Notes: generated from the sequence alone by a model not told the origin. A DNA stretch of 64,000 nucleotides from Candidatus Aenigmatarchaeota archaeon (GCA_026397315.1 JAPLVC010000005.1:2088-66087); one strand, 5' to 3'. Positions 3,403-60,543 are shown, counted from the first letter of the stretch. Program-made: numbers and translations.

Positions 3403-3698
3403 TGTTCGAAAACTGGTCGCATTTCATTCTGGCTTTCCTTGGCTTCATCTGCATTGGCCTGATAATATACCTATTGGGCAACAGAAGCAAAAAAACTGAA
3501 GGCTGGAAGAACGAGCCTTACACGTGCGGCGAACCTTTTCCAAGGACGGATGTCGGCGCGGAGAATTTTTACGCGGCGATAAGGCAGAACCTGCGCATAG
3601 ATGAAATACGCAAGCTCCATTCCGGCAGGCTGACAGACTACCTTTTATGGATGGTTGTGGGAGTGACCGCCATACTAATCATGGTGATATTTTTATGA
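3399..3698 (+). CDS. small membrane subunit (MbhI/NuoA-like)
   Basis: 99 aa with an N- and a C-terminal TM helix. The EPYTCGEPF motif is reminiscent of the NuoA PYECG motif. ATGATG overlaps the upstream stop. Confidence 0.5.
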   Translation: MMFENWSHFILAFLGFICIGLIIYLLGNRSKKTEGWKNEPYTCGEPFPRTDVGAENFYAAIRQNLRIDEIRKLHSGRLTDYLLWMVVGVTAILIMVIFL

Positions 3699-5430: not shown

Positions 5431-6093
5431 ATGAGAATTCCGACAGGCATAACAGGCCTTGACGACCTGATGGAAGGCGGCTTCGATGAAAGCAGCATAA
5501 ATCTCGTGACCGGCAAGACGGGCACCGGCAAATCCATTTTCTCCTCACAGTTCATCTACATGGGTGCCAAAAAATACAATGAAAAAGGTCTTTACATAAC
5601 CGCCGGAGACACTGCAAAAAACATAAGGAAGCAGGCCACCAAGATCGGATGGGATATGGAAGCCCTTGAGAAAAGCGGTTCAGTGAAGATAGTAGAGGTC
5701 GAACCTTACGACATAGAGAAACTGCTTGAAAACGTGTCCATAAGCAAGGAGATGACCCAAGCAAAGAGGATAGTCATAGACTCTATCAGTATGTTCGAGC
5801 TTTACGTCCAGGAGCCTTACAAAATAAGGAAAAACCTTTTCGCAGTCCTGCAAAAGCTGAGGGACATGGGGAAGACCGTGCTCGTCGTCGCTGAAATACC
5901 AGAAGAGAGTAAAAACCTTTCAAGAACCGGCGTCATCGAGTTCATGGTCGACAGCATCGTGATCCTGCAGTTCATGGGCATAGCCAAATACAAGAGATCG
6001 CTTGCCATAAGAAAAATGAGGGTTACAAATCACTCGAGCGACATACACCCATTCGTCATAGGCGACAATGGCATAAAAATAATGCGGATTTGA
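5431..6093 (+). CDS. KaiC/RecA-superfamily ATPase (single KaiC-like domain, ArlH-like)
   Basis: 220 aa. It has the N-terminal IPTGITGLDDLMEGGF, Walker A GKTGTGKS and a Walker B-like RIVIDSIS. Confidence 0.75.
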   Translation: MRIPTGITGLDDLMEGGFDESSINLVTGKTGTGKSIFSSQFIYMGAKKYNEKGLYITAGDTAKNIRKQATKIGWDMEALEKSGSVKIVEVEPYDIEKLLENVSISKEMTQAKRIVIDSISMFELYVQEPYKIRKNLFAVLQKLRDMGKTVLVVAEIPEESKNLSRTGVIEFMVDSIVILQFMGIAKYKRSLAIRKMRVTNHSSDIHPFVIGDNGIKIMRI

Positions 6094-6952: not shown

Positions 6953-8647
6953 TCACATCCTATCGAGTGTGCTTATGCCGAGAAGATTCATGCCTGATTT
7001 AAGAACTAAAGCCACCGCTTCGACTAGCGCCAGTCTGGCGTGTTTCATGTTTTCTTCCGCCTTGAGGACCGGCACGAACTGGTAGAACTCGTTGAACCTG
7101 GTGCAGATGTCGTAGCAGAAATTCGCTATGTAATGCGGCCTCATATCCTCGGCTGCTTTGGCGACTGTTTCAGGGAATTCCGATAGTATCCTGAAAAGAT
7201 GCCTTTCATGCGGTTCCTTCAGGAGCGACATATCGAAAGCGCTTGGCCTTTTTCCTGCGTTTTTAAGTATGGAGCGAGCGCGCGCATATGTGTAAAGCAG
7301 GTATGGTGCTGCATTGCCCTCGAAATCGAGGGCGCTCTTCCAGTCGAAGATTATGGTCTTGCTTGGAGACGTCTTGATCATGTCGTATTTGAGCGAGGCG
7401 AGGGCTATCGTTCTCGAGGCTTCGCTGAGCTCGCTGCTTTTCATTTCCTTGTTTCTCTTCTCGGTTTCCTCGTGCGCGTGCTTCTCCAGCTCGCTCAGCA
7501 CGTCTTCGTAAAGTATGACCACGCCCTCCCTAGACGCCATCTTGCCCGTGGGAAGGTTGACCAGTTCATAACACAGGTGGTGGCTCTTGCCTGCGAGCGG
7601 CGAGCCCATCAGCTCAAATGTCTTGAACAGCTGCTGAAAATACATCTTCTGCTCTGAGCCGACCACGTGTATGGATTTGTCTATCTTGTATTCTTTCGCC
7701 TTGAGTTCGGAAAGCCCGAGGTCCTTGGACGAATAAAGGGGGGTGCCGTCGGATTTAAGCAAAAGGTAGATACCGAGGCCGTATTTTTCCAAGTCGATGA
7801 GTATCGCACCCTCACTCTCCTTGGCCACGCCTTTTTTCAGCAGCTTTTTGGCTATCTCCGTCCCGGGCTTCTCGGTCTCGCTCTCGAAATAGAAGCGGTC
7901 GAATTTTATGCCAAAACTCCTGTAAATTGTGTCAAAATAATCAAGGCTCCACTGCCTCGTTTCTTTCCATATTTTTGCAAGCTCGTGGTCGCCCGCGTAA
8001 ATTTTCCTGTTTATTTCGTTCACTTCTTCTTCCAAACCAGCGTCGTCCTTTATTTTTTTGCTGGCTTCAGCATATACGGTTCCGAGCCATTTTCCCCTCT
8101 CGCCTTCAGGGCCTTTGCCGCCATGGAGTTTGGTGAGTCCCCAGACGCATCTCGCGACATGCGGCCCTATGTCTCCCTGGTAATTGACGCGTATGACCTT
8201 GTATCCGGAAAATGCCAGTATTCTTGAAAGCGACTCGCCAAGGCACGCCGTCCTTATGTGGCCGATATGGACGGCCTTGTGCGTGTTGAAGTGGCAGTAT
8301 TCCACCATCACGTTCCCTTTCGCTTGGCCGCGTCCGAAATTCTCCTCGTCCTTCAGCACGGTCTCGACTGTTGATTGACCTATCTTGTCCCAGTTCGCGA
8401 AGAAATTGACATAACCGCCCTTCTGCTCGGCCCGCGTTATGAGGCCGTGCGGCTTCATCTTATCCGACATTTCCATCGCTATCGCATCGGGAGCTTTCCT
8501 GAATTTTTTCGAAAGCATGAAACACGGGAAAGCCAGGTCGCCCATGTCTTCCGGAGGCTTTTCCAGCGTTATCTCTTCGCTTTTCAGGCCTGTCTCTTTC
8601 GTCAGCGAAGCCACGACCTCTTTCCTGAATTCGTCAAAACTGCTCAT
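6953..8647 (-). CDS. argS: arginyl-tRNA synthetase
   Basis: 564 aa. It has a class I HIGH-type motif (HKAVHIGHIRTA), a GKMASREG (KMSK-like) motif and a DALR-like anticodon-binding C-terminus. Confidence 0.95.
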   Translation of the reverse strand: MSSFDEFRKEVVASLTKETGLKSEEITLEKPPEDMGDLAFPCFMLSKKFRKAPDAIAMEMSDKMKPHGLITRAEQKGGYVNFFANWDKIGQSTVETVLKDEENFGRGQAKGNVMVEYCHFNTHKAVHIGHIRTACLGESLSRILAFSGYKVIRVNYQGDIGPHVARCVWGLTKLHGGKGPEGERGKWLGTVYAEASKKIKDDAGLEEEVNEINRKIYAGDHELAKIWKETRQWSLDYFDTIYRSFGIKFDRFYFESETEKPGTEIAKKLLKKGVAKESEGAILIDLEKYGLGIYLLLKSDGTPLYSSKDLGLSELKAKEYKIDKSIHVVGSEQKMYFQQLFKTFELMGSPLAGKSHHLCYELVNLPTGKMASREGVVILYEDVLSELEKHAHEETEKRNKEMKSSELSEASRTIALASLKYDMIKTSPSKTIIFDWKSALDFEGNAAPYLLYTYARARSILKNAGKRPSAFDMSLLKEPHERHLFRILSEFPETVAKAAEDMRPHYIANFCYDICTRFNEFYQFVPVLKAEENMKHARLALVEAVALVLKSGMNLLGISTLDRM

Positions 8648-8734
8648 AATAATCTATTAACGGCACGACGATTATAAATTATACCCTATTCCGATTGCTG
8701 AAAAAAATAAATGTAAAAACAAATCGTGCATGTT

Positions 8735-9013
8735 TCAGGTTTTTACCTTCTTCAAAGACAATGCCAGGTTACAGCCGCAAAAATCCATGCGCGCATCTGT
8801 GGGCGGTAGTCCGGATCCGTTCTGAAGGTAGCCTGATATCGCGTCCATTTTTTGGGCGTATGGTCCATCCGGCACGGTATCTTTGTATGCCGGTAGTCCC
8901 CAGAACCACGGTTTGGGCCAATCCTGCGAATTCGAATTTTTTTCTGTCATTCCGCTGTCTATGTCCGACAACGTTTTTATAGCTTCCGGCTCATTTATGA
9001 CATTATGGAACAT
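8735..9013 (-). CDS. hypothetical small protein (weak call)
   Basis: This is the only protein-like ORF in the largest non-coding gap. It encodes 92 aa of non-repetitive Trp/Pro-containing sequence (DWPKPWFWGLPAYKDTVPDGPY). The opposite-strand ORF 8695-8982 is Arg/Cys-rich junk. I recognise no family. Confidence 0.3.
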   Translation of the reverse strand: MFHNVINEPEAIKTLSDIDSGMTEKNSNSQDWPKPWFWGLPAYKDTVPDGPYAQKMDAISGYLQNGSGLPPTDARMDFCGCNLALSLKKVKT

Positions 9014-12770: not shown

Positions 12771-14495
12771 CTACAAATCGGTTCTCTGAACAATGGAATC
12801 CTTTATATCTACATTCTTGTCTTTTTTCCTGATTTTTTCCCCTATTTTTGAACGTTGAACTATAGAATCTATTATGTTTATGGTCTCGCTGACCTCGATT
12901 TTCTGTATTTCAGTCGCCAGCGACATGGCTATGACCGTGTATTTGACTATGTCGGCAATCTTTTCTGCCAGATTTTCAAGCTCTTCGTCCTTAGATGAGT
13001 ATAGCTTGAAGGCGACGTGAACAAGACCGTCTTCTTCTCTGAGCACGCAGGTAAGAAGGTAAGTGTCGCCGTCGCTGGACTCGCCGGAAAAAAGATACAG
13101 CCTTTCATTGTCGAACTCGTGACCTGCGACCGGCGCGAAATCCCTGCATTCCTCCAGGACGTGGCTCGAAACCGTCTTTATGTTGGTGCCTTTTAGCGTG
13201 TATCCTTTTATCGCCGAGCGGAAGCCTGCCTTCATTTTCACATACTCGTGCTCGCTTATTTCTTTCGGATGCATGAAGTTCTGCAGGAACCTCCTGAATT
13301 TCTGGGTATAATTGAGCTTGTCCATGTTCTCTTTACTGGCCTGGCCGTCGCTATCGGCTATCGTAGTCGCCTGCTTCAGCGACTCTTCGAGGACGAATGG
13401 CTCCATATCCTTGATGAAATTTCTGCCGCACAGGTCGTGGAAGCTTACCGTGGGTTTGAGCACCGTTTTGCCCGTGACCGTCGGCAGTATTTTGAAAACG
13501 AAGCCCTTCTCCTCTCCGGGATTTATCTTGTCTATTTCGTAACCGCTCACCGGGTCGACCTTGATTTCAACCGGAAAATTCATGACCAGGTTTACATCAC
13601 CTATGGGTTGCCTGGAATTATTGGAGACGGAAACCACGAAATATGATTTCTTGCCGACTTCCAGCTTTTCCCTGAGATACGGCCTCACATCGATGTTCGG
13701 AATGACGCACATTCTCGGCGGCTCTATCTCGCTTTCCATGCGTTCGCCCCTGGCGTTTTTCCATTCAACTTTGGCGTAAAGCGGCTTCGCGTTTTCGGAA
13801 GGTGTGATCATGTAGCTGAGCGCTCTGGACTCGCCGGGCTTCATGGAGGCCACGTTCTCGAGGACGTTCGCCTTTACGCCGAGTATCCTTATATCACTGA
13901 GTGTCTCTTTCGTGTCGTTTCTCAGCGTGAGTGTCATTTTTACTTTTTCGCCTTCCTTTACCACGTTGCTTTCGCAGGTATGGCTTATGCTGAGATGCGG
14001 GGCGATTCTGGCGATGTCATGTATCCTTTTTTCTATCTCCTCGCTGTACTCGATATCGAGGGATTTTTTGTAGTTTTTGATTGCCAGATTGTAATCTCCC
14101 ATCTTCTCGGCCGCCTGCCCCATCAGGTTGTAGCACCACTGGATCGCATAAAGGGAGCCGGCGTGAGTGAAATAGTCTATCGCCTTGTTTGCGAAGCTTA
14201 TGGTATTGTTTAAGTCGCTGAAAGAGAACGAGTAAAAAGCAGCGGACTTGTATGCCCAGCCCACGTTGAAATCCTTGCCCAGCTTGAGGTTGCACTGCAC
14301 CTCTTCAAGACAGAAATCTACCGCCCTTTTGTCGTTTATCGATTCAGCCAGTCTGGCGGCCTCCTGATAAATTTCAGCCGCTTCAGCGCACTTGCCTGAC
14401 TTGGCCATTTTTTCCGCTTTTTTGGCCAGGTTTTCCATTTCTTTGGCAGTCTTTTTTATTTCCTTCGCATTGGCGGGGGACTGTTGTTTGTCCAT
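12771..14495 (-). CDS. cytoplasmic TPR/MIT-like plus tandem beta-sandwich (CARDB/DUF11-like) protein, third gene of the ESCRT-III/Vps4 operon
   Basis: 574 aa with no signal peptide. The N-terminal roughly 170 aa are helical-repeat (AEIYQEAARLAE, YNLMGQAAEKMGDYNLAIKNYKKSL). Two Ig-like segments follow (VKEGEKVKMTLTLRNDT..., KKSYFVVSVSNNSRQPIGDVNLVMNF...). The C-terminus carries a duplicated DSIVQR(S/T) motif. Its start is 38 nt downstream of the vps4 stop. Confidence 0.7.
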   Translation of the reverse strand: MDKQQSPANAKEIKKTAKEMENLAKKAEKMAKSGKCAEAAEIYQEAARLAESINDKRAVDFCLEEVQCNLKLGKDFNVGWAYKSAAFYSFSFSDLNNTISFANKAIDYFTHAGSLYAIQWCYNLMGQAAEKMGDYNLAIKNYKKSLDIEYSEEIEKRIHDIARIAPHLSISHTCESNVVKEGEKVKMTLTLRNDTKETLSDIRILGVKANVLENVASMKPGESRALSYMITPSENAKPLYAKVEWKNARGERMESEIEPPRMCVIPNIDVRPYLREKLEVGKKSYFVVSVSNNSRQPIGDVNLVMNFPVEIKVDPVSGYEIDKINPGEEKGFVFKILPTVTGKTVLKPTVSFHDLCGRNFIKDMEPFVLEESLKQATTIADSDGQASKENMDKLNYTQKFRRFLQNFMHPKEISEHEYVKMKAGFRSAIKGYTLKGTNIKTVSSHVLEECRDFAPVAGHEFDNERLYLFSGESSDGDTYLLTCVLREEDGLVHVAFKLYSSKDEELENLAEKIADIVKYTVIAMSLATEIQKIEVSETINIIDSIVQRSKIGEKIRKKDKNVDIKDSIVQRTDL

Positions 14496-14533
14496 AAGAA
14501 AAATTGAACGCTAAACTTTATAATGTCAGCGTC

Positions 14534-15637
14534 TCAGACGCTGAGGTTTTCCTTCCAGTCATCGTATCTCTTTATCAGTTTCTGGCTCACGGTCTTCTTT
14601 ATTTTTGAAAGCGCGTATGTAAAATCGTCTTTCGTCAACGGCCTGTATTTAATGGCGTATTTCTCTACCTGTGTCGCTGTCATATCTTCGAGATTCGGGT
14701 TCTGCTCGCGTATCATGAACATTATGGCCTCGCGACATATGCTGGCTATATCCCTTCCGGAATAGCCCTCGCTTATTTCTGCCAGACCATCCGCGGTGAT
14801 GCCGGAGAGCGACGAGCCTTTCACGTGTATTTCGAATATCTTCCTTCTCGAATCAACATCAGGCAACGGCACGTATATCTTCCTCTGGAACCTCGATATC
14901 ATAGCGTCATCGAGATCCCATGGCCTGTTCGTGGCGGCCATTATTATGACCTTCTCGTCCTTCTTGGTCGAGAAGCCGTCTATCTCTACGAGCAGCTGGG
15001 ATATGACCCTTCTCGTCGCCTCGTGAACGCCAGCTTCCCTCGTGATCATTATTGAGTCGAACTCGTCCATGAAAATAAGCGAGGGCTGGTTTTTTCTTGC
15101 CTTGTCGAAAAGCGCGCCTATGATCTTCTCGGATTCGCCATAATATTTGGAGAGGAGAGTCGATGTCTTCGCCTCGAAAAAATTCGCTTTTAGCGTGTTG
15201 CTGGCCGCCTTGGCTAGCAGCGTTTTTCCGGTTCCCGGAGGACCGTAAAGCAGTATCGTGCGCGGCACCTCCACAAACGCCGGTTTGCCGACGATCATGG
15301 GGAGGATTATAGATTCCCTGACCTCGCGCTTCGCTTCCTTGAGGCCGCCTATGTCCTCCCACTTCGTCGTGGGCTTTTCGTAAACTATCATCTTGTCTAT
15401 TGGCTGCTCGGACTTCGCCTTTCCAGCGCCGCTAACGCCTTCGAACTGGTCTGCCGAATGGAACAGCGACTCTGCCTCGTTTCTGGGAGATATGTAAGCC
15501 AGACGCCTGTAAATAGATGCGGCAACCTTGTAATGCGTTGTCGCCTGCTTTGATTTGCCGTCCGCTTCAAGCTTCCTTGCAGTATCCAGTTCGTGCTGGA
15601 GCTGCTGTTTCAAAAGCGACTCTCTCAGTTCGCCCAT
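14534..15637 (-). CDS. vps4: Vps4/CdvC-like AAA+ ATPase (meiotic clade) with an N-terminal MIT-like domain
   Basis: 367 aa. It has an N-terminal three-helix region, Walker A GPPGTGKT, Walker B LIFMDEFD, and the SRFQRKIYVPLPD block characteristic of the Vps4/katanin/spastin clade. Confidence 0.85.
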   Translation of the reverse strand: MGELRESLLKQQLQHELDTARKLEADGKSKQATTHYKVAASIYRRLAYISPRNEAESLFHSADQFEGVSGAGKAKSEQPIDKMIVYEKPTTKWEDIGGLKEAKREVRESIILPMIVGKPAFVEVPRTILLYGPPGTGKTLLAKAASNTLKANFFEAKTSTLLSKYYGESEKIIGALFDKARKNQPSLIFMDEFDSIMITREAGVHEATRRVISQLLVEIDGFSTKKDEKVIIMAATNRPWDLDDAMISRFQRKIYVPLPDVDSRRKIFEIHVKGSSLSGITADGLAEISEGYSGRDIASICREAIMFMIREQNPNLEDMTATQVEKYAIKYRPLTKDDFTYALSKIKKTVSQKLIKRYDDWKENLSV

Positions 15638-15656
15638 CAGACCACCAGAAGAAAAA

Positions 15657-16268
15657 TCACTCTGTGTCCTCTTCCTTCTTTTCCTCTGTTATTGACTTCG
15701 CTTTCTCGCCGGCCATGCGCATTGCCGTTTCTTCGTCTACCTTTTCCAAATCGTTTATGGCGTGCATGAGCTCCTGCGATTCCTCATCGACAAGCATCTG
15801 CTGTTTGCCGAAGACCCGTTCCAGCTTTTCCTTTACCTTGTCCAGGCGGCCTTCTTCCAACGCTTCCCTGACGTCGGTATCGGTAAGCACTTCACTCAGC
15901 CTGTCCATGTCCGTGTCAAGAATTTCCTTCGCGATGGATGAAATCTGTTCACTCTTCTCGCGCTGTTTCATGGCCTGGACAAGCAGTATGAGCTGCAGTT
16001 CGCGGAGAAAATGAGACGCTTCAATCTGCTTCGTGCGCGACTCGAGGCTCAATGCCTTGATCTTCTGCACGTTCAGCATCTTGAGCGTGTTGGGCTGCCC
16101 TTTGGATTCGAGCATGAGCTTCTGGATTTTTTCGGCAATGCCCCTGAGGTCGTCAGAAATCCTCTCAATTTCCTTTTCTATTTTGAGGCGTTCCTTGAGC
16201 AAATCGTTGTCTTTTATGGAAAAAATGTCCTTGCCGAATCTCGATTTGATGAATTTCTTGAAATCCAT
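15657..16268 (-). CDS. cdvB: ESCRT-III (Snf7/CdvB)-like coiled-coil protein
   Basis: About 203 aa from the ATG at 16268 (the ORF-track start at 16277 is GTG, and GGTGA lies 6 nt upstream of the ATG). The N-terminal helical hairpin is basic and the C-terminus is acidic (EEKKEEDTE). An MDRLSEVLTDTDVREALEE segment resembles the Snf7 alpha4-5 region. The gene sits 19 nt upstream of vps4. Confidence 0.6.
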   Translation of the reverse strand: MDFKKFIKSRFGKDIFSIKDNDLLKERLKIEKEIERISDDLRGIAEKIQKLMLESKGQPNTLKMLNVQKIKALSLESRTKQIEASHFLRELQLILLVQAMKQREKSEQISSIAKEILDTDMDRLSEVLTDTDVREALEEGRLDKVKEKLERVFGKQQMLVDEESQELMHAINDLEKVDEETAMRMAGEKAKSITEEKKEEDTE

Positions 16269-16313
16269 CGCTCTCACCTTGATATTTATTTTGACTGTCT
16301 TAAATATAAAGGT
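16269..16313. promoter_or_regulatory. 45-bp shared divergent control region with two interdigitated TATA-like boxes
   Basis: The sequence is CGCTCTCACCTTGATATTTATTTTGACTGTCTTAAATATAAAGGT. ATATTTATTTT (16282-16292) lies 22-32 nt upstream of the plus-strand ATG at 16314. TTTATATTTA on the minus strand (16301-16310) lies 32-41 nt upstream of the cdvB ATG. Confidence 0.6.
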
Positions 16314-19300
16314 ATGAAAGGTTTTCTGCTATCGCTCGACGCAATTGTGGCGATAACTTTGTTGCTATCGGTGTCGCTTTTTTTGGCCGGAATTTCGTTC
16401 ACGTATTCGACACCCGAACTGCGCTATCAACGCTATTACTATGCCGGCAAGGACGTCGCCACGCTTTTTCAGGAGGCCAAAATGAGTTCCGTCTCCGGCG
16501 TCGTCAACCTGACCAAATACAACCTCACCCAGGAGGAGATGAACAGGACAATACTTGACGTGATAGGTTCTTTCTGGGCCAGCGGCAACATGAGCGCGGC
16601 CAGTAATCTGACAAGGGACATTTTCAGTGAGGTTTTAGGAAACACTGGTCTCAACTACGAGGTTTCTTTCAACGACGAAACGATATACGCCAGCAACGAC
16701 TCATATTCGGATTTTGTTGCCAGGCTGTCTACAATCGTTTCAGGTTATGAAAAAACGAAGCCCGTCAATGGTTATCTTGCGAAGGTTTATGTCACAAAAG
16801 TCTCGAAAACCAATTCGGAGTTCATATATTTCGGTGGCTACGAGGGAGACGGCAACATAACCAAGATCATCACACTCCCCGTTGACGTGAACGTGACCGG
16901 GGCTTACCTTGAAATGAACGTCGGCAACAATTTCATGCTTTACATCAACGACCAGCCTGCGGGGGCATATTCCAAGAGTGCTGCCAATTTCTCGGCGGAT
17001 AACTGGACCATATGCTCGAAGGCGAATCCAACATACTGTTCATACTTTGCGGCCGGCCAGAACATAATACAGCTGAATTTCACCACGAATCAGAGCACCT
17101 ACATAGGTGGTGGCTATCTCAAGGTCACTTACAAAACTTCCGAGCTTACGGAATACACAACCAGCGACAATGCCAGCGATTACTACGATTTTCCCGGCAT
17201 ACGAGGCATTATCAACCTTTATTCGTCTTTCTACGTGCCGGGCACGCTGAAAAACATAAGCGCCAGGCTGCATTACAACAACAACCTCAGTCTCAACGGC
17301 CAGGGCGTGCCGGTCTATTTTGTTATCGGCTCAAAGGAGATATACAGGAGCAACGCAACTGGCGAACAGGTAATTGAAATCCCGGAGAAAAACATATCCG
17401 ACGCTTTCGGTGGCAAAACAAATCTTACAGACAAACTCAGCAACGCGACCATACCCATACGCTTCGGCACGGACACGTTCGCCTTTACAAGCGGCGAAGG
17501 GACGAGCGATTCAGTTCTTATAACAGACGTGTCAGGCAGCATGGGCGACTCTTGTGATGTCGAAACTTCGTCATGCCTTCACACTGACTGTAACACCGCA
17601 AGCGGTTGCCAGAACTACAGGATAGACGTAGCAAAGGATGTTGACAAAAACTTCGTCTCTATGGTTTTGAATTACACAGGCAACAGACTGGGATTGGTGA
17701 GCTATACAACGTCCACAGAAAGGACGCATTATCTTAGCAACAACAGCGTGTCTCTAAGCACTCAAATAGATAAGTATACGGATATAGATAACACCTGCAT
17801 TTCATGTGGTATAGCCGATGCGACAAGCATGCTTCAGAACAACACAAAAGCTTACAATAGATTAATTACAGAAAAAGCGACGTGGTTGTATAATACGAGT
17901 TTTCCGAATGAAACCCCACCAATAATAAACGGGACTTCATGGAATGAACATAATTACACAGATACGGGATGGGACGAAGGTCAGGCCATACTCGGTTTTG
18001 GTTCAGTGGACACTGATATAGGAAATAACGGAGGTGATTATTATTTCAGAAAACACTTCAACATCAGCAACGTCGATACCATAGAATCGGGTGAATTATA
18101 TGTTCTCTCGGATGATAATGCGGAAATTTATCTTAACGGCCATATCATAGATAACGATACCCAGCAGCACAATGGACAATACTGGAATAGGGGTGAACAA
18201 ATAATTTTTTCTGACAACTTCGAAAACTATTATTCTACCGGCCAGAACAGGCTGTACTCTAACGAAATAAACACGACGCCCGGATATTGGATTGTTAATG
18301 GTACCCCATCGGCCGATAAGGAAGTTTTCATAATGGCCGATGTTTCAATGTATCCGGCAAGTAGCGGAAATGACGTACTTGTTTTTAGGGATATGGACTC
18401 ATATGGTTATGCCGAAAAAAAAATAAATCTCACCGGTGAGGAAAATCTTATGCTCTCATATTGGTGGAGAATGGGACCGAATTCGATTGAAAGTGGCGAA
18501 TATGCGAACGTGCAAATATGGGATGGCAGCTGGAAAACTGCCAGAATGTACAACGGCAGCCAATTTTATGGTCCTGCGCTTAGAGGTGAAATAAATCTTT
18601 CCGGATATAATATGGTCGACAACTTCACGATAAGATTTGGCTTAAGGTCGAGTGATGATGATGAAAGGTTTTACATTGATGATCTTGAAATAAAAAGGGG
18701 AGTGATACTGGTAAACAACTCGTATTTCAAAAATGGAGATAATGTGATAGCGGTAAAGCTGCGCAATGATGACAGTGTGAATGCGGGTTTCGATCTTTCA
18801 CTTAACGTGACATCGAAAAGATACAAGGCAATGCTGGTCATGAGCGACGGGTTGGCAAACGAGTGTTTACCTAGTGGAGCGACTTGTTCCAATTATAACG
18901 CAAGCAACCAAGCAATAATGAAGGCATGCGAAGCGAGAGATAACTTCAGCATAAACGTCTATGCTGTGGGATTCGGCTCAGGTGCAAACATGACTACTTT
19001 AAGCAAAATAGCGTGCTGGAACTGCTCAGCAAACAATTGGATTTCCGGATGCAGCAGGTATTACAACAGCACCAATGCCGATGAGCTTGAAAAAATTTAT
19101 AGGGACATAGCAAGAGACATAGCCAACGCCAGCTATGCCGGCCAGCTCTTCAACTTCACCGGCAATGTGTCCCTGAACAACATTTTATACACGGACTCTT
19201 ACATATATTTCGATTACACGCCAGTTGTCAGGACGCCGGAATACGGGGAGATAACCCTTAATTTCGAATCTCCGCGCCTGAGCGCATCCACAGGCAACAA

Positions 19301-20060
19301 CATGACGACTGACAACGAAACCGGGACCAAGGAAGGCTGGTTCTTCATACCAGGCGATACTGAAGTCTCGACGGAAGTGCTTGATTCAAAAATAACATCA
19401 TACTCATCGTACTACTGGACGGACAGGCTTTGGGTCAACTCGTCCAGCACGCCTAATCAGAACTGGACGCGTGTATACTGGCTCGCAAACTATTCGAGCG
19501 ATTACGAAAAGCTGGGAGACCCATATATCGTGCAGATACCGCCCAACCTTCTTACAGCAAATGGCAACAACTCATTTAAAATAGGCACTGGACTTCGTCC
19601 GACTCCGCTGTCCGGGGGCAAAGGCGCCTCGCCGGACGACAGGATAATTTACACGCTGGGTATAAAAGGCATAAGCCTCACGCAATACAGCGACGTTTTT
19701 GCCAAGGCCAAAGGTTCGACTGTCACTATATATTACGATGCGAACGGCGATAACATCGCGGACAGCTCTGCCGTCGTGGAGGTCGGACCGGAACCAGGTG
19801 ATAATTTCGACCCCATGAACGACTCGATAGACAACGGCTTCATGAAACTCATGGACAGGATGAATTTCATGAGCGATGTTAATTCAGGCGTAGTCGATTT
19901 AAACTACACGACATCAGGGCCAAGCGGAACCGGCGACGGCTCATTCGGCAATCCTGTCGACCTGGAAATAACCGAAGACGTGAATTTCAATTCGGATTTC
20001 ATATCACAAATATCATCCATGTGGGGGCCCGCTATAATGGAGGTAAAAATATGGGGATAA
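16314..20060 (+). CDS. giant pilin-like (class III signal peptide) surface protein with a vWA domain and dense N-glycosylation sequons
   Basis: 1248 aa from the ATG at 16314. The 5' extension to 16011 overlaps cdvB on the opposite strand. The N-terminus MKG/FLLSLDAIVAITLLLSVSLFLAG fits a prepilin-peptidase (K-G then hydrophobic) signal. The vWA MIDAS motif is LITDVSGSMGD, with MLVMSDGLANEC and VYAVGFGSG. A jelly-roll-like block reads GGDYYFRKHFNIS...LSDDNAEIYLNGH. I count about 52 N-X-S/T sequons by eye. Confidence 0.85.
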   Translation: MKGFLLSLDAIVAITLLLSVSLFLAGISFTYSTPELRYQRYYYAGKDVATLFQEAKMSSVSGVVNLTKYNLTQEEMNRTILDVIGSFWASGNMSAASNLTRDIFSEVLGNTGLNYEVSFNDETIYASNDSYSDFVARLSTIVSGYEKTKPVNGYLAKVYVTKVSKTNSEFIYFGGYEGDGNITKIITLPVDVNVTGAYLEMNVGNNFMLYINDQPAGAYSKSAANFSADNWTICSKANPTYCSYFAAGQNIIQLNFTTNQSTYIGGGYLKVTYKTSELTEYTTSDNASDYYDFPGIRGIINLYSSFYVPGTLKNISARLHYNNNLSLNGQGVPVYFVIGSKEIYRSNATGEQVIEIPEKNISDAFGGKTNLTDKLSNATIPIRFGTDTFAFTSGEGTSDSVLITDVSGSMGDSCDVETSSCLHTDCNTASGCQNYRIDVAKDVDKNFVSMVLNYTGNRLGLVSYTTSTERTHYLSNNSVSLSTQIDKYTDIDNTCISCGIADATSMLQNNTKAYNRLITEKATWLYNTSFPNETPPIINGTSWNEHNYTDTGWDEGQAILGFGSVDTDIGNNGGDYYFRKHFNISNVDTIESGELYVLSDDNAEIYLNGHIIDNDTQQHNGQYWNRGEQIIFSDNFENYYSTGQNRLYSNEINTTPGYWIVNGTPSADKEVFIMADVSMYPASSGNDVLVFRDMDSYGYAEKKINLTGEENLMLSYWWRMGPNSIESGEYANVQIWDGSWKTARMYNGSQFYGPALRGEINLSGYNMVDNFTIRFGLRSSDDDERFYIDDLEIKRGVILVNNSYFKNGDNVIAVKLRNDDSVNAGFDLSLNVTSKRYKAMLVMSDGLANECLPSGATCSNYNASNQAIMKACEARDNFSINVYAVGFGSGANMTTLSKIACWNCSANNWISGCSRYYNSTNADELEKIYRDIARDIANASYAGQLFNFTGNVSLNNILYTDSYIYFDYTPVVRTPEYGEITLNFESPRLSASTGNNMTTDNETGTKEGWFFIPGDTEVSTEVLDSKITSYSSYYWTDRLWVNSSSTPNQNWTRVYWLANYSSDYEKLGDPYIVQIPPNLLTANGNNSFKIGTGLRPTPLSGGKGASPDDRIIYTLGIKGISLTQYSDVFAKAKGSTVTIYYDANGDNIADSSAVVEVGPEPGDNFDPMNDSIDNGFMKLMDRMNFMSDVNSGVVDLNYTTSGPSGTGDGSFGNPVDLEITEDVNFNSDFISQISSMWGPAIMEVKIWG

Positions 20061-20062
20061 AT

Positions 20063-20761
20063 ATGAAAAGACTGGCCACACTTTCAATTGTGCTGGTGAC
20101 TTACACCATTTTAGCAATTTTAATTTCACACGCTGCTGCCGCGCAGGAAGGAGGTACAGAGGTATGTCTCGTATACTTTACCAGTTATGCTTGCGGCGAC
20201 GACTGCAGTTTGACCGACACTTTCATGGATGGCCTCATGAGCGAATACACCGGAAACCTGACAGCGATCGTATACTATACTGATGTCCAGGGCAACGCGA
20301 ACGTTTTTCAGGCTTACAGGAGAACTTACAACCTTCCCGACAGCGTGCCGCTCGTGCTTTTCGGCAGCAACAACTATCTTCTCGATATTGATAATATCTA
20401 TCAAAACACGGAATCAAAAATACTGGATTTCATCGATGCAAACGGCACAAACTGCCCTCTTGACTCCGGATATGTCCCTCCGTGGCAGGTTGGTGCTGGT
20501 AGCCTTCCCGGACAGGCTATGATACTTACAACAGGGGGACAGTTAAAACGCGATGACATCAAAAAAAATAATACAGTACCAGCGGATGAGAGTAAAGAAA
20601 ATATTTCATCCGGGAATGAAACAGATAAAACAGAAAATGTTTTTGAGCTGAATGAACCCATGAAAGAAACCGTCTTCTCTCTTGTAATTATAGGGATTGT
20701 GCTGATGGTGGTGGCTGCCATCATTATTTATGTCTGGGACAAGACACAGGAAAGTTTATGA
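20063..20761 (+). CDS. secreted, C-terminally membrane-anchored protein with a thioredoxin-like-fold N-domain (tentative)
   Basis: I take the ATG at 20063, 2 nt after the upstream stop. It has a signal peptide MKRLATLSIVLVTYTILAILISHAAAAQ, the segment CLVYFTSYACGDDC...VPLVLFG, an Asn/Lys-rich linker and a C-terminal TM helix (VFSLVIIGIVLMVVAAIIIYVW). Confidence 0.5.
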   Translation: MKRLATLSIVLVTYTILAILISHAAAAQEGGTEVCLVYFTSYACGDDCSLTDTFMDGLMSEYTGNLTAIVYYTDVQGNANVFQAYRRTYNLPDSVPLVLFGSNNYLLDIDNIYQNTESKILDFIDANGTNCPLDSGYVPPWQVGAGSLPGQAMILTTGGQLKRDDIKKNNTVPADESKENISSGNETDKTENVFELNEPMKETVFSLVIIGIVLMVVAAIIIYVWDKTQESL

Positions 20762-21138
20762 AAGATAAAACAAAGGCTTTCATTTTTCTTTCGCTGGCGA
20801 TAGCCGAGACTCTCGTTCTGGTCTGGTTCTCGCTACAGCCATCAGCAGCCTTCGTCCCCAGCGCCGGCTTTCTGCGGTCCGGTGACCTGGAACATTTAGT
20901 GGCTTATGTTGTGTATGGCTTCATGTGGTCTGCTTTTTTCCTCACTTATAAAAAAAGACCCGGTGTCGCAATGACTATTCTGCTGTCGCTAGCGATAGGT
21001 TCCGCAATCGGAGCGCTATGCGAAACACTGCAGCTTTTCGTCCCCACGCGCGTGGCCGACCCGCTTGACTGGGCAATAGACTCGCTTGGCTCGCTTTGCG
21101 GCGCAGCTGCGGCCGTTAAAGCCAGAAACCTTTTTTAA
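20758..21138 (+). CDS. VanZ-like family membrane protein
   Basis: 126 aa with 4 TM helices. DLEHLVAYVVYGF and ETLQLFVPTRVADPLDWAIDSLGSLCG match VanZ-like motifs. An ATGA overlap joins it to the upstream gene. Confidence 0.7.
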   Translation: MKDKTKAFIFLSLAIAETLVLVWFSLQPSAAFVPSAGFLRSGDLEHLVAYVVYGFMWSAFFLTYKKRPGVAMTILLSLAIGSAIGALCETLQLFVPTRVADPLDWAIDSLGSLCGAAAAVKARNLF

Positions 21139-21178
21139 AGTCAAAACCGAATCTGATTATATTGATGTTAGTGATGAC

Positions 21179-21676
21179 ATGAAAACTCCAATATGCGGTA
21201 TTTGCATGAATTCGGACATGCTCTGCATGGCATGTCAGAAAAAGCTTGATGATGGTAGCATAAGTGAGGCCGACGTTCGTCTGGCCAGGGCAGTCAAGAC
21301 GCTAGCATCCACTTTCAAAGTTCTGGACAACATAACCATAAAAAAAGTCCTGGAAGGCAGTACCATCATTGTAATGCTGTGCTGCAGGGGTGACAGGCCG
21401 AAGTTGGTGGGAAGGGAAGGCGTCGTGATAAACAGACTTTCAAAAATGATGGGAAAAACCGTAAGGGTCATAGAGGAGACAGAAGACATGAAGGAATTCA
21501 TAAAAAATATCATACATCCGGTCCCGTTAGAAGGGATTAACGTAGTTTACAGTACGGACGGGGAAAACCTGAAAGTTATAATCCCGCGCAATAGGAATTT
21601 GCCGATGTCCGAGTTGTCATTCAGAGAAATCATCAAAATGGTTTTTGGCAGGAATGCAGTCGTCGCAAAAGCGTGA
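21179..21676 (+). CDS. Zn-ribbon plus KH-like putative RNA-binding protein (NusA-like KH, tentative)
   Basis: I take the ATG at 21179. It has an N-terminal CGIC...CMAC zinc ribbon and a LVGREGVVINRLSKMMGKTVRVIE segment resembling a KH GxxG-type motif. Confidence 0.45.
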   Translation: MKTPICGICMNSDMLCMACQKKLDDGSISEADVRLARAVKTLASTFKVLDNITIKKVLEGSTIIVMLCCRGDRPKLVGREGVVINRLSKMMGKTVRVIEETEDMKEFIKNIIHPVPLEGINVVYSTDGENLKVIIPRNRNLPMSELSFREIIKMVFGRNAVVAKA

Positions 21677-26488: not shown

Positions 26489-28222
26489 ATGGCTGACACA
26501 GAACTTGAGAAGCCACTCGACCGCATGGCCAAAGAAGAAAAGGCAAGACAAAAAAAGGAGGCGGAAGAGCACAAGAGGGAAGCAAAGGTTAAATGGTGGA
26601 AAAACCAGCTCGAAGAATATGACACAGTCCTGGAATATCTTTTCGCCAAGGCTAGGGAAACCGGCGGCATCTATGGCGATATTGTGATAAGCCCCGCTCT
26701 CATAGACCAGATAGTGACGCTTAATCCGGTCGCGCTTGAAGGCCAGGCGGAAATAATTTTCAATGTTTTCATGTACAGGCTGGCCAAATGGCATTATCTT
26801 TTTGAAAAGGCGGACGAACTGATAAGGGTCACGCCGGTAGCGCCGCCCGCTTTCGCCCCGATGCTGGCGCAGAAAGAGAAGTTGGAAGGCCATATAAAAG
26901 CGGGCCTCGCATCCGCAGCGCAGGCTGTCGCGGACTACGAGCTGTTGAAGCACGACGAAAGGAAATACAGGGAGATTCTAGATTATTTCAAGATGGGGGA
27001 AAAGGACCAGCACGTGCTGCGCGCGCTCTATATTGACAGAGTCGACGCCTACATGGGCGAGGGATATTCGATGGTCACGATGACAAAGCGCTGGCCCACC
27101 ATAATAGGCGACTTCCTGAAAATGCAGGATGAATGGACCGACACGAAGCTCATAAGGGAAAAGCTGAGAGTGACGAACGTCGAGGCGAACGTGCTCAAAA
27201 CAAAGAACGAGCTTTTCAAGGAGTGGAAGAAGCTGTTCTTCCCCGACGTGCGCGAGCGCTACGGCAGGATAAAGAACCTGCTCGATTCGAGGAAGCGCTC
27301 CGTCGACGAATACAGGGAATGGCTCAAGCCGTATTTCAACAAGCTCAAGCTGATACGAGAAGAGTCGGAGTTGAAGGATGCGGCAACAGATTTCACGGAT
27401 CCGCTCAAATTCGGCTTCACGCCGAACGGCGAAGTTAATGCGAAGCTCTGGTTCTGGAAGCCCATCAGGCCGGAAGAGACGGGCAAGCCGCTAATAATAC
27501 AGGGATGGGGCGAGATACCGATATTCGACGACTGGGTGAAGGACATGCTTCCTGCCCTAGAGGCGAAATATGAAGTCAAGTGGACCGAAAAGGAGGTGAA
27601 AAAATTTGTTGCCGAAAAACAGCGTGGCACTCCCAGTTCAAGGACGAGCAAGCGAAAGGAATTGCTGACCATATACCCGGCACAGGACATAGACGAGAGA
27701 TTCCTGTATTATTTTTTCGTGGACTTGGACTACCAGTGTCAGTACAAGAAAGGCTCTACAGGACCAATGGTTATAGAGGACCAGTACTGGCACTTCCATC
27801 CGTTCCTGCTCTCTAAAAACGTCATCCTATTCATGCTGCTAGAGCTTGCAAGCAAAAATAAAAAGCTCAAACTGGAGATAGAGAAAATCATCGGCGTGAA
27901 AAGCATCGAGGACGAATACATAAAGAAAGCGGAGGAGGATTACAGACTGAAAAGCGAACACGTCGAAAAGGATGAAAAGAAGACTCTCGCAAATTGGAAA
28001 GATAACTGGGAAGGCAGCAAAATATCATGGAAAGCCAGGAGGAGAAAGCTCAAAAAGACGCTACAGCCCCTGCTCAAATTTTTCTTCAAGCCGGGCCCGT
28101 ATGAGATAAACGTCGCAGAGAGAGTGTCGAAAACGTATGGCCTATATTTCGGTGCCCAGGTGGAAGAGATGAGGGAACTCATCAAGGAAACTGCTTATAG
28201 AATAAGTGGTCAGAGACCATAG
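26489..28222 (+). CDS. uncharacterised 577-aa mostly helical, Lys/Glu/Trp-rich cytoplasmic protein
   Basis: This long ORF has protein-like composition, with no P-loop, TM segment or signal peptide. Both termini are charged and coiled-coil-like (KEEKARQKKEAEEHKREAK, KKLKLEIEKIIGVKSIEDEYIKKAEEDYRLK). I recognise no family. Confidence 0.75.
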   Translation: MADTELEKPLDRMAKEEKARQKKEAEEHKREAKVKWWKNQLEEYDTVLEYLFAKARETGGIYGDIVISPALIDQIVTLNPVALEGQAEIIFNVFMYRLAKWHYLFEKADELIRVTPVAPPAFAPMLAQKEKLEGHIKAGLASAAQAVADYELLKHDERKYREILDYFKMGEKDQHVLRALYIDRVDAYMGEGYSMVTMTKRWPTIIGDFLKMQDEWTDTKLIREKLRVTNVEANVLKTKNELFKEWKKLFFPDVRERYGRIKNLLDSRKRSVDEYREWLKPYFNKLKLIREESELKDAATDFTDPLKFGFTPNGEVNAKLWFWKPIRPEETGKPLIIQGWGEIPIFDDWVKDMLPALEAKYEVKWTEKEVKKFVAEKQRGTPSSRTSKRKELLTIYPAQDIDERFLYYFFVDLDYQCQYKKGSTGPMVIEDQYWHFHPFLLSKNVILFMLLELASKNKKLKLEIEKIIGVKSIEDEYIKKAEEDYRLKSEHVEKDEKKTLANWKDNWEGSKISWKARRRKLKKTLQPLLKFFFKPGPYEINVAERVSKTYGLYFGAQVEEMRELIKETAYRISGQRP

Positions 28223-28229
28223 GGTATTT

Positions 28230-29996
28230 ATGATCAAGGTCGGAGTCACGACTGGTTTGTATTACATTGCCAGGGCGGAAGAGCTAGCGACGTCGCTGAA
28301 GAAAATAGGTTATGCCCTGTCGAAAGGTGCGAACTCCATCGAGATTTCCGGCGACACTCCGCACGAGATAGATTATACGATAGGTCAGGAGATACGCGAC
28401 CTTGCCTTCAAACAGGGCATCGACCTGTGTTTTCACGGCTCGCTAACCACGCCTTTCGAAATTCCCGAGCGAAGCGATTGGCGTGACGCACAGGAGCACG
28501 TAGAGAAGTCGATACGTTCCGCTGTTTTCTCAGGCTCAAAATACGTCCTGTTCCATGCCTGTCTGCACTTCTGGCTTGAGATGATAACGTTCACGTCATC
28601 GAAGCTCGAGATAGTCATGTGCGACCACGCGGGCCGCATCATATCTGATATATTGAAGGATGATGAACGCCTTAGGAACTGGTTTTCAATTAAAATGTGG
28701 GAATACGAAAGGCAATATCCTCACCTGATTCTTAGAGAAGAGGACCAATATGAAGCGAATCTGAGAGCGGCAGAAGAGCTGCGTCTCTGGGCCGACAAAG
28801 AAACAATAAGAAGAATCAGAGAGGAACGAGAAAAAAATCCGCCAAAAAACGAGCTTGAGGAAAGACTTCTGGAAGCGCGCATGCAAGCAGAAGTGAGCAA
28901 GGAAGGAAGTAAAAAACAGTCCATAAAACAGAAAGAATACCAGACGAAAATGGCAAAAGAAAGGATGGCAAGCGATGACCCCGAAAAAAGGAGATGGAAA
29001 GTCGAAACTTACGGCAAGATGACCGACTGTTATGAAATAATAGCGCATCACATGTTCTACAGAAAAGACCCGATATGGATGGCCATGGCCGACGTTTACA
29101 AGGACGTGCTAGCCACCTATAACCTGGATTATAACGACGACTGGGCATTGGACAAGGCATGGAGAACGGCGCAGGACAGTAACGACCGCCAGTTTAAGGA
29201 GTTCTGGTATGCCACGATGGGCGCGAAGTTCCTCGAAGGCCACATGAAATCAGCTCTGGAATATCTGAACGGGGGGTTGATTAAACATCTGAAACAGTTT
29301 CCTGATGCGGAAAAGCTGATAGACATAGCAAAAAAGCTGAAAATAACGATAGAGATGCCGGACGCCAGAGATCCGAGATACGCCGGACAATACATATTAT
29401 GGCACCCAAAGCAGATTTACGCCGCCATAAAAACCATAAGAAAAACGCTCAACACCGACAGGATTTTCATGACCATCGACTGGGAGCACATAGCCGGCCA
29501 GGGAGTCGACCCGCTGATAGAGATTGACAATCTTAAGCGATTGGCGCCGGACTTCGGCAAATACGTGCTTTCCGTCCATTCCAACGCTCCAAACCCGCTG
29601 CACGCCCATTACCCCATAGAACTTGGCGACACCGAGGTTTACAAACTAAACTATTTTTTGCGTAGCACCGGCTTCGGCAAGCAGCTTGGATACAACGTGT
29701 ATCTCTGGTTCGAGCGCGGCGGCGGCGACGACCCGTTCCGCCAGTCAGTCGATACGCTCAAACTATGCGCCAAATTTCTCGAGCAGGACGTACCTCCGGA
29801 CAAGCTGCCGGAAGAATATTTCGGCATAAAACTGACGGGCATGGACTTCTGGAGGCAGGAAAACATAATGAGAGACCACAGGTTCGAGCCGCTAAAGGAC
29901 CTGCTGGAAATGCCTGAAGAGGAATGGGGCATGCTCTCCTCGGTAGCGATGAGAAAGGGCAAGACAAAGGAATTCAAGAAGGAAGAACTGAAATAA
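28230..29996 (+). CDS. xylose-isomerase-like / Endo IV-like (AP endonuclease 2 family) TIM-barrel protein with a large charged insertion
   Basis: 588 aa from the ATG at 28230, 7 nt after the upstream stop. The blocks follow the metal-ligand order of this fold: CFHGS (His69), VLFHAC (His109), ITIEMPDA, TIDWEHIAGQG, LSVHSNAPN, HAHYPIELGD, LWFERGG. Roughly 230-250 residues of Lys/Glu/Arg-rich helical sequence lie between LFHAC and IEMPDA. Confidence 0.75.
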   Translation: MIKVGVTTGLYYIARAEELATSLKKIGYALSKGANSIEISGDTPHEIDYTIGQEIRDLAFKQGIDLCFHGSLTTPFEIPERSDWRDAQEHVEKSIRSAVFSGSKYVLFHACLHFWLEMITFTSSKLEIVMCDHAGRIISDILKDDERLRNWFSIKMWEYERQYPHLILREEDQYEANLRAAEELRLWADKETIRRIREEREKNPPKNELEERLLEARMQAEVSKEGSKKQSIKQKEYQTKMAKERMASDDPEKRRWKVETYGKMTDCYEIIAHHMFYRKDPIWMAMADVYKDVLATYNLDYNDDWALDKAWRTAQDSNDRQFKEFWYATMGAKFLEGHMKSALEYLNGGLIKHLKQFPDAEKLIDIAKKLKITIEMPDARDPRYAGQYILWHPKQIYAAIKTIRKTLNTDRIFMTIDWEHIAGQGVDPLIEIDNLKRLAPDFGKYVLSVHSNAPNPLHAHYPIELGDTEVYKLNYFLRSTGFGKQLGYNVYLWFERGGGDDPFRQSVDTLKLCAKFLEQDVPPDKLPEEYFGIKLTGMDFWRQENIMRDHRFEPLKDLLEMPEEEWGMLSSVAMRKGKTKEFKKEELK

Positions 29997-41971: not shown

Positions 41972-41972
41972 A

Positions 41973-60533: not shown

Positions 60534-60543
60534 CGGTGCATTG

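Follow-up and report, generated by a model that had tools for sequence, protein, structure and literature searches.

The window analysed here is a stretch of 64,000 nucleotides from a Candidatus Aenigmatarchaeota archaeon (GCA_026397315.1, JAPLVC010000005.1:2088-66087). The gene of interest occupies positions 16314-20060 on the plus strand, and encodes a large protein that joins a predicted class III (pilin-type) signal to a von Willebrand factor A (vWA) domain carrying an insert. Its ATG start, its stop codon and its length were verified. The longest open reading frame (ORF) that can be drawn mechanically runs from 16011 to 20060 (+), but a start at 16011 was rejected, because the first 101 codons would overlap the minus-strand gene at 15657-16277, because the extension is not conserved in most homologs, and because an independent gene call on a public (Logan) contig with an identical gene also gives ATG 16314 and 1248 amino acids (aa). 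The equivalent Met is the start of nearly all homologs. The parts of the gene are as follows.

16314-20060 (+): coding sequence of the pilin-signal vWA protein, 1248 aa, with stop codon TAA at 20058-20060.
16314-16322 (+): leader M-K-G, with a class III site predicted after G3 from sequence and family conservation; cleavage is presumed.
16323-16394 (+): H-domain, aa 4-27, FLLSLDAIVAITLLLSVSLFLAGI, with conserved F+1, S+4, D+6 and A+7.
16395-17504 (+): N-terminal scaffold, aa 28-397, modelled by AlphaFold2 (AF2) as a short helical stretch and then beta-sandwich domains; 19 N-glycosylation sequons.
17505-17852 (+): first half of the vWA domain, aa 398-513, with the metal ion-dependent adhesion site (MIDAS) residues D405-x-S407-x-S409 (nt 17526-17540) and T494 (nt 17793-17795).
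17853-18815 (+): insert interrupting the vWA fold, aa 514-834, made up of a pair of jelly-roll modules in tandem that resemble carbohydrate-binding modules (CBMs).
18816-19148 (+): second half of the vWA domain, aa 835-945, with MIDAS D845 (nt 18846-18848) in KAMLVMSDG, and conserved Cys residues.
19149-20057 (+): C-terminal scaffold, aa 946-1248, KITSYSSYYWTDRLWVNSS…, rich in beta structure, better conserved than any other part of the protein, and without a C-terminal transmembrane segment.
17540-19090 (+): apparently recombinant head cassette with low GC content at third codon positions (GC3), approximately aa 410-925 (vWA plus insert), with breakpoints placed to about ±60 nt.

The ORF length and all motifs quoted in an initial annotation of the window, which had been made from the sequence alone, were recovered at the expected residues: DVSGSMGD at aa 405, MSDGLANEC at aa 843 and VGFGSG at aa 885, together with the jelly-roll motifs GWDEGQAILGFG at aa 552, GGDYYFRKHFNIS at aa 573 and LSDDNAEIYLNGH at aa 598. 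The same annotation had guessed at a small-genome archaeon. This agrees with database labels that place the source in class Aenigmatarchaeia of the DPANN archaea, with the archaeal signal recognition particle (SRP) RNA and archaeal housekeeping genes found in the window, and with the position of a relative's gene on a 1.1-Mb contig, which is consistent with a small genome. An identical gene is present in a freshwater-sediment metagenome. Among 8000 candidates scored, 371 homologs were obtained at E <= 1e-3. The full-length ones are 35-92% identical and are labelled Aenigmatarchaeota or Aenigmarchaeota, the closest lying on a contig named Aenigmatarchaeia_QMZP01, and the more distant ones are labelled Micrarchaeota, Nanohalarchaeota, Woesearchaeota, Nanoarchaeota and Altiarchaeota. 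Source labels for the homologs read ‘hypothetical’ or ‘VWA domain-containing’, and we found no paper describing this protein family in the literature. When the full-length protein was compared directly by sequence with PDB chains nothing matched, an NCBIfam search returned only noise, and Foldseek run with a 1200-residue multi-domain model gave low-TM mixed matches (reelin, BcsB, Cry toxins, GH2) that were not assignable to regions.

Alignment with homologs that lack an insert delimits the foreign segment as aa 514-834, lying between the helix …CISCGIADATSMLQN and the strand KAMLVMSDG. When this segment was removed in silico, the joined halves scored 30.6 bits against PF00092 (gathering cut-off 23.8) and 30.3 bits against VWA_2, PF13519 (cut-off 27), and both matches run across the junction. 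Scored separately, the halves reached 25.9 and 16.3 bits, recorded as below the cut-offs. The AF2 secondary structure has the expected beta-alpha alternation on either side of the insert, the MIDAS residues D405, S407, S409, T494 and D845 are invariant in 41 orthologs, and among solved structures the family profile matches best to the fimbrial subunit Mfa5, in its vWA domain (E = 4e-6). The gain in score on splicing, and the way in which insert-less homologs align over the junction, show the two segments that bear the MIDAS to be halves of one vWA domain. A split domain had been suspected in the initial annotation, and the doubt raised there, that the MIDAS-bearing segments might not form one vWA fold, was checked and did not materialise in either the splice test or the alignments. 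The estimate of an interruption of about 450 residues was too large: the insert measures 321 aa (514-834), and of the 438 aa that separate the two MIDAS motifs, about 110 belong to the vWA domain itself.

We also see that two insert-less homologs, P0089 and P0092, keep the scaffold and have lost the MIDAS DxSxS (TTSRVDAMN and TTSRVSDMG, respectively). Judging from these two, not all members of the family would be able to bind a ligand through a metal.

The AF2 model of the insert (aa 514-834) is all-beta, with a pLDDT of 85 and a pTM of 0.69. In Foldseek it matches CBM4-2, CBM22, CBM61, CBM16, MAM, reelin repeats and a gingipain adhesin domain (probability 1.0, E ~1e-6, TMt 0.55-0.63), as well as phage tail-fibre and CenC-like modules. 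The first module (from about aa 539 to aa 613 or 640) holds the GWDEGQ…YYFRKHF…EIYLNGH block that had been described as a galactose-binding-like jelly-roll, and is a widespread repeat: an exhaustive search of representatives gave 1229 matches, with up to nine copies per protein, including bacterial proteins sorted by the type IX secretion system. Its relatives show weak matches to the CBM-like (PL4), BetaGal_gal-bd, Glyco_hydro_2_N and PA14 models, all of them sub-threshold or without an individually significant domain. Together with the Foldseek matches, these weak matches in homologous modules bear out the earlier description. The second module (approximately aa 640-834) is CBM4/22-like, and corresponds to the part of P0088 and P0111 that scores as Reelin_subrepeat-B. 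A word-indexed homolog search with the insert alone had no return despite P0001 being 93% identical there, which we ascribe to a limitation of the index. In short, the model supports assignment of the insert to a fold class, the CBM-like jelly-roll; membership of a curated family and sugar binding are not supported.

The position of the insert is a feature of the whole family. Across 120 homologs the scaffold is conserved (query aa 1 to about 513 and about 835 to 1247), and the segment between is variable. This slot, which lies in the alpha3-betaD connection of the vWA fold, is empty (0 ± 2 aa) in 31 proteins, including P0052, P0063, P0064, P0072 and P0075 (insert-less proteins of about 940 aa that all carry PF00092), and is 30-46 aa long in 5 others. 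Longer occupants fall at about 290-340 aa, which is the type seen in the query, and at about 450-530 aa, which is another type, with a maximum of 842 aa. Other domains found in the slot of homologs are Laminin_G_3, DUF2341, Reelin_subrepeat-B, BetaGal_gal-bd/DUF7383 and GH114_assoc. On a neighbour-joining tree built from the scaffold only, and without support values, the slot states are interleaved, and in several clades insert-less forms have ~320-aa, ~500-aa or ~590-aa forms as their sisters. This interleaving implies, as far as such a tree can be read, repeated gain, loss or replacement at one position of the vWA fold.

The centre of the gene differs from its surroundings in composition. 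GC content is 0.39-0.41 over 17650-18850 vs 0.47-0.51 in the flanks, and the spot counts that had first suggested an A/T-richer centre (21/60, 21/60, 27/60 and 28/60) were reproduced exactly. The dip resides in third codon positions, with a GC3 of 0.41 in aa 516-835 vs 0.60-0.63 in the flanks. As background we used 105 windows of 320 codons from 18 other genes (mean GC3 0.624, sd 0.047, minimum 0.469), and the dip lies below all of them; a flat profile, which would have spoken against a mosaic gene, is not what these window statistics give. A syntenic relative shows where the unusual tract ends. Locus L004 (GCA_043808015.1), which encodes homolog P0002, is collinear with the window over 23.7 kb at about 88% DNA identity, and the longest divergent stretch between them is 17,500-19,050, where DNA identity falls to 0.55-0.70; smaller divergent patches lie at 8,564-9,000, 19,964-20,560 and ~28,700. 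At the protein level, P0002 and the query are 93-97% identical over aa 49-400 and 946-1248, and 44-68% identical over approximately aa 426-912.

The closest comparison is with P0001, which is sister to the query on the scaffold tree. The GC3 dip (0.36-0.50) is common to these two genes, and the P0002 gene is flat (0.57-0.71). At synonymous sites, query and P0001 are 0.83-0.96 similar over most of the cassette (approximately aa 500-950), and are less similar in the flanks (mostly about 0.6-0.8, range 0.50-0.91). The query cassette stands about equally far (0.58-0.64) from all other orthologs, irrespective of their distance in the scaffold (0.64-0.94). For the centre of P0002 the nearest sequences are P0007 and P0009 (0.71-0.72); leaving aside the query/P0001 pair, these two also belong to its closest relatives by scaffold (0.76-0.79). 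The simplest reading is that homologous recombination brought in the whole head, vWA plus insert, from an unsampled relative of lower GC, and that the head then passed once more between the query and P0001 lineages or entered them in parallel. The initial annotation had proposed a mosaic or recently acquired centre. The exchange is supported; its restriction to the insert is not, as the tract also covers the vWA halves (approximately aa 410-925). One could instead explain the dip and the divergence by locally relaxed or diversifying selection combined with a compositional quirk of the insert, and it is true that the head is the most divergent region in all orthologs (55-65% identity vs 72-85% for the C-terminal scaffold). 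However, the dip resides in synonymous third positions (GC3 0.41 vs 0.62) and is missing from the same region of the syntenic relative P0002, the divergence from L004 steps at two breakpoints inside an otherwise 88%-identical 23.7 kb, and the query and P0001 are more alike in the cassette than in the flanks at synonymous sites. We therefore regard selection without exchange as very improbable.

A diversity-generating retroelement was considered as a source of the variation in the head and rejected: the gene tables hold no reverse transcriptase, and the 64 kb contain no template/variable repeat and no direct repeat involving the gene. In sequencing run X3, from another freshwater-sediment metagenome, contig pieces at 17,604-18,471 are deeper (16-29x) than those upstream of 17,400 (0-8x), and there are no pieces from ~18,700 to 21,290. 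This depth pattern agrees with a cassette shared between strains, and is too fragmentary to count as evidence.

At its N-terminus the protein reads M-K-G-F-L-L-S-L-D-A-I-V-A… and continues through about 24 hydrophobic residues, with K at -2 and G at -1. Class III signals are described as having a charged residue at -2, G, A or S at -1, and a processing site placed ahead of the H-domain and close to the N-terminus (PMC4371748). All of these features are present here, as is an H-domain of about 20 aa directly after the site (aa 4-27). The pattern [KR][GAS]xxx[ST]x[DE] is kept in 103/121 family members, whose identity elsewhere is only 35-90%, mostly after leaders of 3-4 aa, and the class III signal noted at the outset is thereby extended from one protein to a family; most non-matching members have K-x-G or are truncated gene calls. 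Among the 103, F+1 is found in 90, D+6 in 99 and A+7 in 94, giving a shared N-terminus of [KR][GA]/F-x-x-[ST]-x-D-A, where the slash marks the predicted site. Because G(-1), F(+1), D(+6) and A(+7) are near-invariant in proteins that are otherwise 35-40% identical, this conservation argues for a functional motif, used in processing or assembly, over a generic anchor. In a related strain sampled in run X3, a CAC (His) codon is inserted at 16319, after codon 2, which gives the start MKHGF… as in P0001.

The sequence holds exactly 52 N-X-S/T sequons (4.2 per 100 aa), matching the approximate count made earlier. Composition-preserving shuffles gave 21.3 ± 4.0 sequons with a maximum of 35 (n=2000), and the 47 other genes of the window average 0.58 sequons per 100 aa, which makes the vWA protein sevenfold enriched. 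The remaining sequon-rich genes of the window all encode predicted secreted proteins. At 23 query positions the sequon is kept in at least 30 of 40 orthologs. Because sequons are this numerous and many are positionally conserved, the ectodomain is probably heavily N-glycosylated. The product of a separate gene at 52343-53890 (-), a secreted protein of 515 aa that is rich in Cys, has 17 sequons (3.3 per 100 aa) and matches nothing in Pfam; it is a candidate surface glycoprotein in its own right.

Beyond the vWA gene itself, the window contains a partner gene and a set of type IV filament genes.

20051-20761 (+): conserved partner gene downstream of the vWA gene, whose stop codon it overlaps; its 236-aa product has a signal peptide, an N-domain containing Cys and a C-terminal transmembrane segment.
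33141-34334 (+): 397-aa class III protein, MRG/QFYSAIAIL…, with 13 sequons and 39% identity to a 407-aa protein of locus L010.
34336-35190 (+): ORF for a membrane protein of the type IV filament module, with an uncertain start and absent from the gene calls of the contig.
35114-36673 (+): type IV filament assembly ATPase of the T2SSE family, 61.5% identical to the ATPase neighbouring the vWA gene in L010.
41093-42830 (+): two adjacent T2SSF (TadC/FlaJ-like) platform genes (41093-41971 and 41973-42830).
57383-57865 (+): candidate archaeal type IV pilin, 160 aa, MGKKG/ISPVIASVLLIG…, with 5 sequons and a weak Pilin_N match (E = 0.016, below cut-off).
60541-62229 (+): second T2SSE-family ATPase, with a PilB3_C domain.

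A connection with the pilin pathway, proposed earlier from the signal alone, finds independent support in the gene neighbourhoods of other DPANN lineages. In three of the four distant lineages examined, the vWA homolog lies inside a type IV filament gene cluster. At L008, three small class III genes (RG/QVSLEYL, KG/QVALEF and RA/QIWSLDLF), the vWA gene and a 316-aa class III gene stand alongside a divergent T2SSE-T2SSF-T2SSF set. L010 has the order vWA gene, 407-aa gene, 207-aa gene and T2SSE. At L011, the order on one strand is vWA gene, 623-aa gene, second vWA protein, 650-aa, 354-aa and 325-aa genes, and T2SSE. Orthologs of the L010 module are present in the window itself, at 33141-34334, 34336-35190 and 35114-36673 (39%, 41% and 61.5% identity, respectively). 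The first of these is the ortholog of the gene found directly 3′ of the vWA gene in other DPANN lineages, and the second is homologous to the 207-aa protein of L010 as well as to a 325-aa protein of L011 and a 298-aa protein of L008. The orthologous filament cluster of the window is 13-25 kb from the vWA gene.

The Aenigmatarchaeia loci share a local arrangement. In the window, L004, L006, L007 and L009 the vWA gene stands upstream of the 236-aa gene, and in all of these except L007 it follows a cluster resembling the endosomal sorting complex required for transport (ESCRT). The 236-aa protein is 23-28% identical to the L007 and L009 copies, and its gene has its own divergent low-GC patch, with 19,964-20,560 only 0.56-0.68 identical to L004.

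Several further observations were made in these neighbourhoods. The ESCRT-like trio at 12771-16277 (-) is directly upstream of the vWA gene and is conserved in this arrangement in L004, L006 and L009. In coordinate order, its genes encode 574 aa with TPR/MIT-like repeats and beta-sandwich matches of the CARDB/NPCBM_assoc type (12771-14495, -), an AAA ATPase that is Vps4-like and has Vps4_C (14534-15637, -), and a coiled-coil protein of 206 aa, lacking any Pfam match, that could be ESCRT-III-like (15657-16277, -). Two genes at 26489-28222 and 28230-29996 (+) encode charged, apparently cytoplasmic proteins of 577 and 588 aa with no Pfam match, and are syntenic in L004 and L006. KaiC-family ATPase genes occur near vWA and type IV filament genes in three lineages (window 5431-6093, +; L008 1241-1954; L007 5966-6670); it has been put forward that KaiC-like ATPases regulate the type IV pili of archaea (Makarova et al. 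2016, PMC4858521). The second vWA protein of L011 (6056-8776, on a contig labelled Altiarchaeota) has 906 aa and the same type of N-terminus, MENRGYAILLDSLMALIL…, and lies two genes downstream of the first; paralogous pairs of the family thus occur within one filament operon. Finally, L009 carries at 1-1338 an Oxidored_q6 gene (NADH dehydrogenase 20-kDa subunit-like) with an intein (Intein_splicing plus LAGLIDADG_3), and the Oxidored_q6 copy of the window (3647-4171) is without it.

Taken together, we interpret the vWA protein as a modular, pilin-like, N-glycosylated surface adhesin of a DPANN type IV filament system, with an exchangeable head, and give this interpretation a probability of roughly 0.6. 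The preprotein would be inserted by the Sec/SRP route, and M-K-G would be taken off by a class III signal peptidase. The conserved N-terminal helix (F+1 … S+4, D+6) could then dock the protein into or onto a type IV pilus, or retain it in the membrane; if it is docked, the pilus tip is the most plausible site given the bulk of the protein. The vWA domain, with its intact and invariant MIDAS, would bind an acidic residue of the ligand through a divalent cation, the two CBM-like jelly-rolls in the alpha3-betaD connection may add glycan recognition, and N-glycans would shield the ectodomain. Because the head appears to have been replaced by recombination and slot contents vary between lineages, exchange of the cassette would change specificity, probably for the surface of a host or partner cell, while keeping the filament-facing scaffold constant. 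The protein is in this sense a good candidate for host attachment.

A number of observations weigh against this interpretation. The acidic residue of the signal is at +6, vs the +5 typical of bacterial and Epd pilins, and similarity between aa 1-149 and the neighbouring small pilin-like protein of L008 is confined to the signal and helix. Within the head, the intact protein has only a sub-threshold Pfam match to VWA_2 (aa 401-515, 22 bits vs a cut-off of 27), the insert has no Pfam match at E <= 0.1, and its Foldseek TM-scores are moderate. From canonical topology, moreover, the alpha3-betaD connection would lie opposite the MIDAS face, so that cooperation between insert and MIDAS is not obvious. 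Public runs yielded only fragmentary contigs from freshwater-sediment metagenomes, with no RNA runs and no expression data found. Other adverse points would be accounted for if the protein were a membrane-anchored surface adhesin or envelope protein, in which the helix is either an uncleaved anchor or is cleaved but retained in the membrane, and which never enters a pilus. At 1248 aa the protein is bulky, and the region after the N-terminal helix has no recognisable pilin globular domain. In Aenigmatarchaeia the vWA gene sits between the ESCRT-like cluster and ABCE1 and does not adjoin filament genes, and at L012, the locus of a distant homolog, it is stand-alone and outside a filament cluster. 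No peptidase A24 gene was found in the Pfam tables of the 64-kb window or the 12 fetched loci, and a scan of the hydrophobic ORFs of the window and these loci for a GxGD[VI]K-type motif gave no class III signal peptidase. In Sulfolobales, proteins other than pilins are documented among the substrates that have class III signals (PMC4371748), and the sugar-binding ‘bindosome’ proteins of Sulfolobus, which carry such signals, would be the model. However, the near-invariance of G(-1) F(+1) … D(+6) A(+7) exceeds what a plain anchor needs, and the gene is found inside filament operons beside small pilins in three other DPANN lineages. On balance, a protein that stays out of the filament seems to us unlikely.

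It may also be that the protein serves the filament without conferring specific adhesion, as a PilY1/TadG-like accessory factor in biogenesis, priming or mechanosensing that initiates assembly, blocks retraction or senses tension through its vWA domain. Passages in the literature on PilY1 (PMC8806160, PMC9210963) and TadG (PMC4858521) have such vWA proteins accompanying bacterial type IV and Tad pili, and in a 2026 preprint PilY-like adhesins are mentioned for filament loci of archaea. A conserved scaffold, and a conserved order of the vWA gene, the gene of the 397/407-aa class III protein and the ATPase gene, would suit this role. The PilC/PilY1 beta-propeller domain, on the other hand, gave no Pfam match at E <= 1, and a variable lectin/CBM slot together with exchange of the head are signs of changing ligand specificity, for which a factor of assembly only would have no use. 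A purely accessory function is improbable to our minds, although the accessory and adhesin roles are not mutually exclusive.

If the vWA protein is indeed a filament adhesin, it bears on a wider question. Little is known of the way in which DPANN archaea recognise and grip their hosts: pili-like connections have been imaged (PMC7906910), but the molecules involved await identification. The vWA family is a concrete candidate, being large, conserved across several DPANN phyla, and equipped with a pilin-type N-terminus, a linkage to filament genes and a modular, recombining head. More speculatively, and we hold this as doubtful, it could be the first example of a DPANN-wide ‘cassette adhesin’, in which a pilus-presented vWA scaffold with a slot dedicated to inserted domains carries a lectin/CBM head that is swapped between lineages by homologous recombination and that both sets and switches the host open to an episymbiotic archaeon. 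Were this true, the family would be a cellular analogue of host-range switching by phage tail fibres, and a genomic marker for predicting DPANN-host pairings. The adhesin interpretation would also extend to Archaea the bacterial principle of a binding module grafted onto a pilin, with the unusual twist of a slot inside the vWA fold.

Among known systems, PilB of Streptococcus sanguinis (PMC8179133) offers a close parallel. It too has a class III signal, a hydrophobic helix and a bulky vWA domain with a functional MIDAS; its presumed place is the tip of the pilus, and it works directly as an adhesin. Its companion pilin PilC carries a ConA-like lectin module, following the same grafting logic (PMC8179133). 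In contrast to the archaeal protein, PilB is bacterial and much smaller, and has a canonical pilin globular module and an N-methylation motif; its vWA domain bears two small arms beside the MIDAS, whereas the archaeal domain holds a 321-aa double jelly-roll in the alpha3-betaD connection. The likeness is one without demonstrated sequence homology outside the vWA fold. PilY1/PilC of Pseudomonas and Neisseria, and TadG of Tad systems, are likewise large vWA proteins. They have genetic and physical ties to type IV filaments, adhesion and surface sensing are the roles in which they are implicated, and TadG has a pseudopilin-like N-terminus. As differences, PilY1 does not belong to the pilins and ends in a PilC beta-propeller, and these are systems of diderm bacteria. 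Among vWA tip or ancillary subunits of other types of pilus, Mfa5 of Porphyromonas gingivalis shares the vWA region, as the best solved-structure profile match, and RrgA of Streptococcus pneumoniae resembles the archaeal protein in having a vWA domain that hosts inserted elements within a nested multi-domain adhesin (PMC8179133). Assembly of Mfa5 and RrgA is unrelated (type V fimbriae and sortase pili, respectively), and the inserts differ in position and fold.

On the side of the filament, a two-gene platform with one ATPase, many class III pilins and presence in DPANN archaea fit the description of ‘system 1’ or Epd-like archaeal type IV filaments, as in Methanococcus maripaludis Epd (bioRxiv 10.64898/2026.04.22.720090), which have a split platform protein (two T2SSF) and one ATPase, and to which the machinery of the window may belong. 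These also share many class III pilins, including the G/Q-x-S-x-E motif seen in L008; as a difference, the preprint describes no large split-vWA protein. Phage tail-fibre and receptor-binding proteins offer an analogy only: the fold of the insert recurs in them, and they too combine a conserved scaffold with a recombining head, but the gene described here belongs to a cell, keeps its place in a conserved chromosomal synteny and is not surrounded by viral genes. Compared with the modular vWA pilus adhesins known to date, what is less expected is that the family is archaeal and DPANN-wide, that it keeps a fixed slot inside the vWA fold, and that its head shows clear signs of exchange between lineages.

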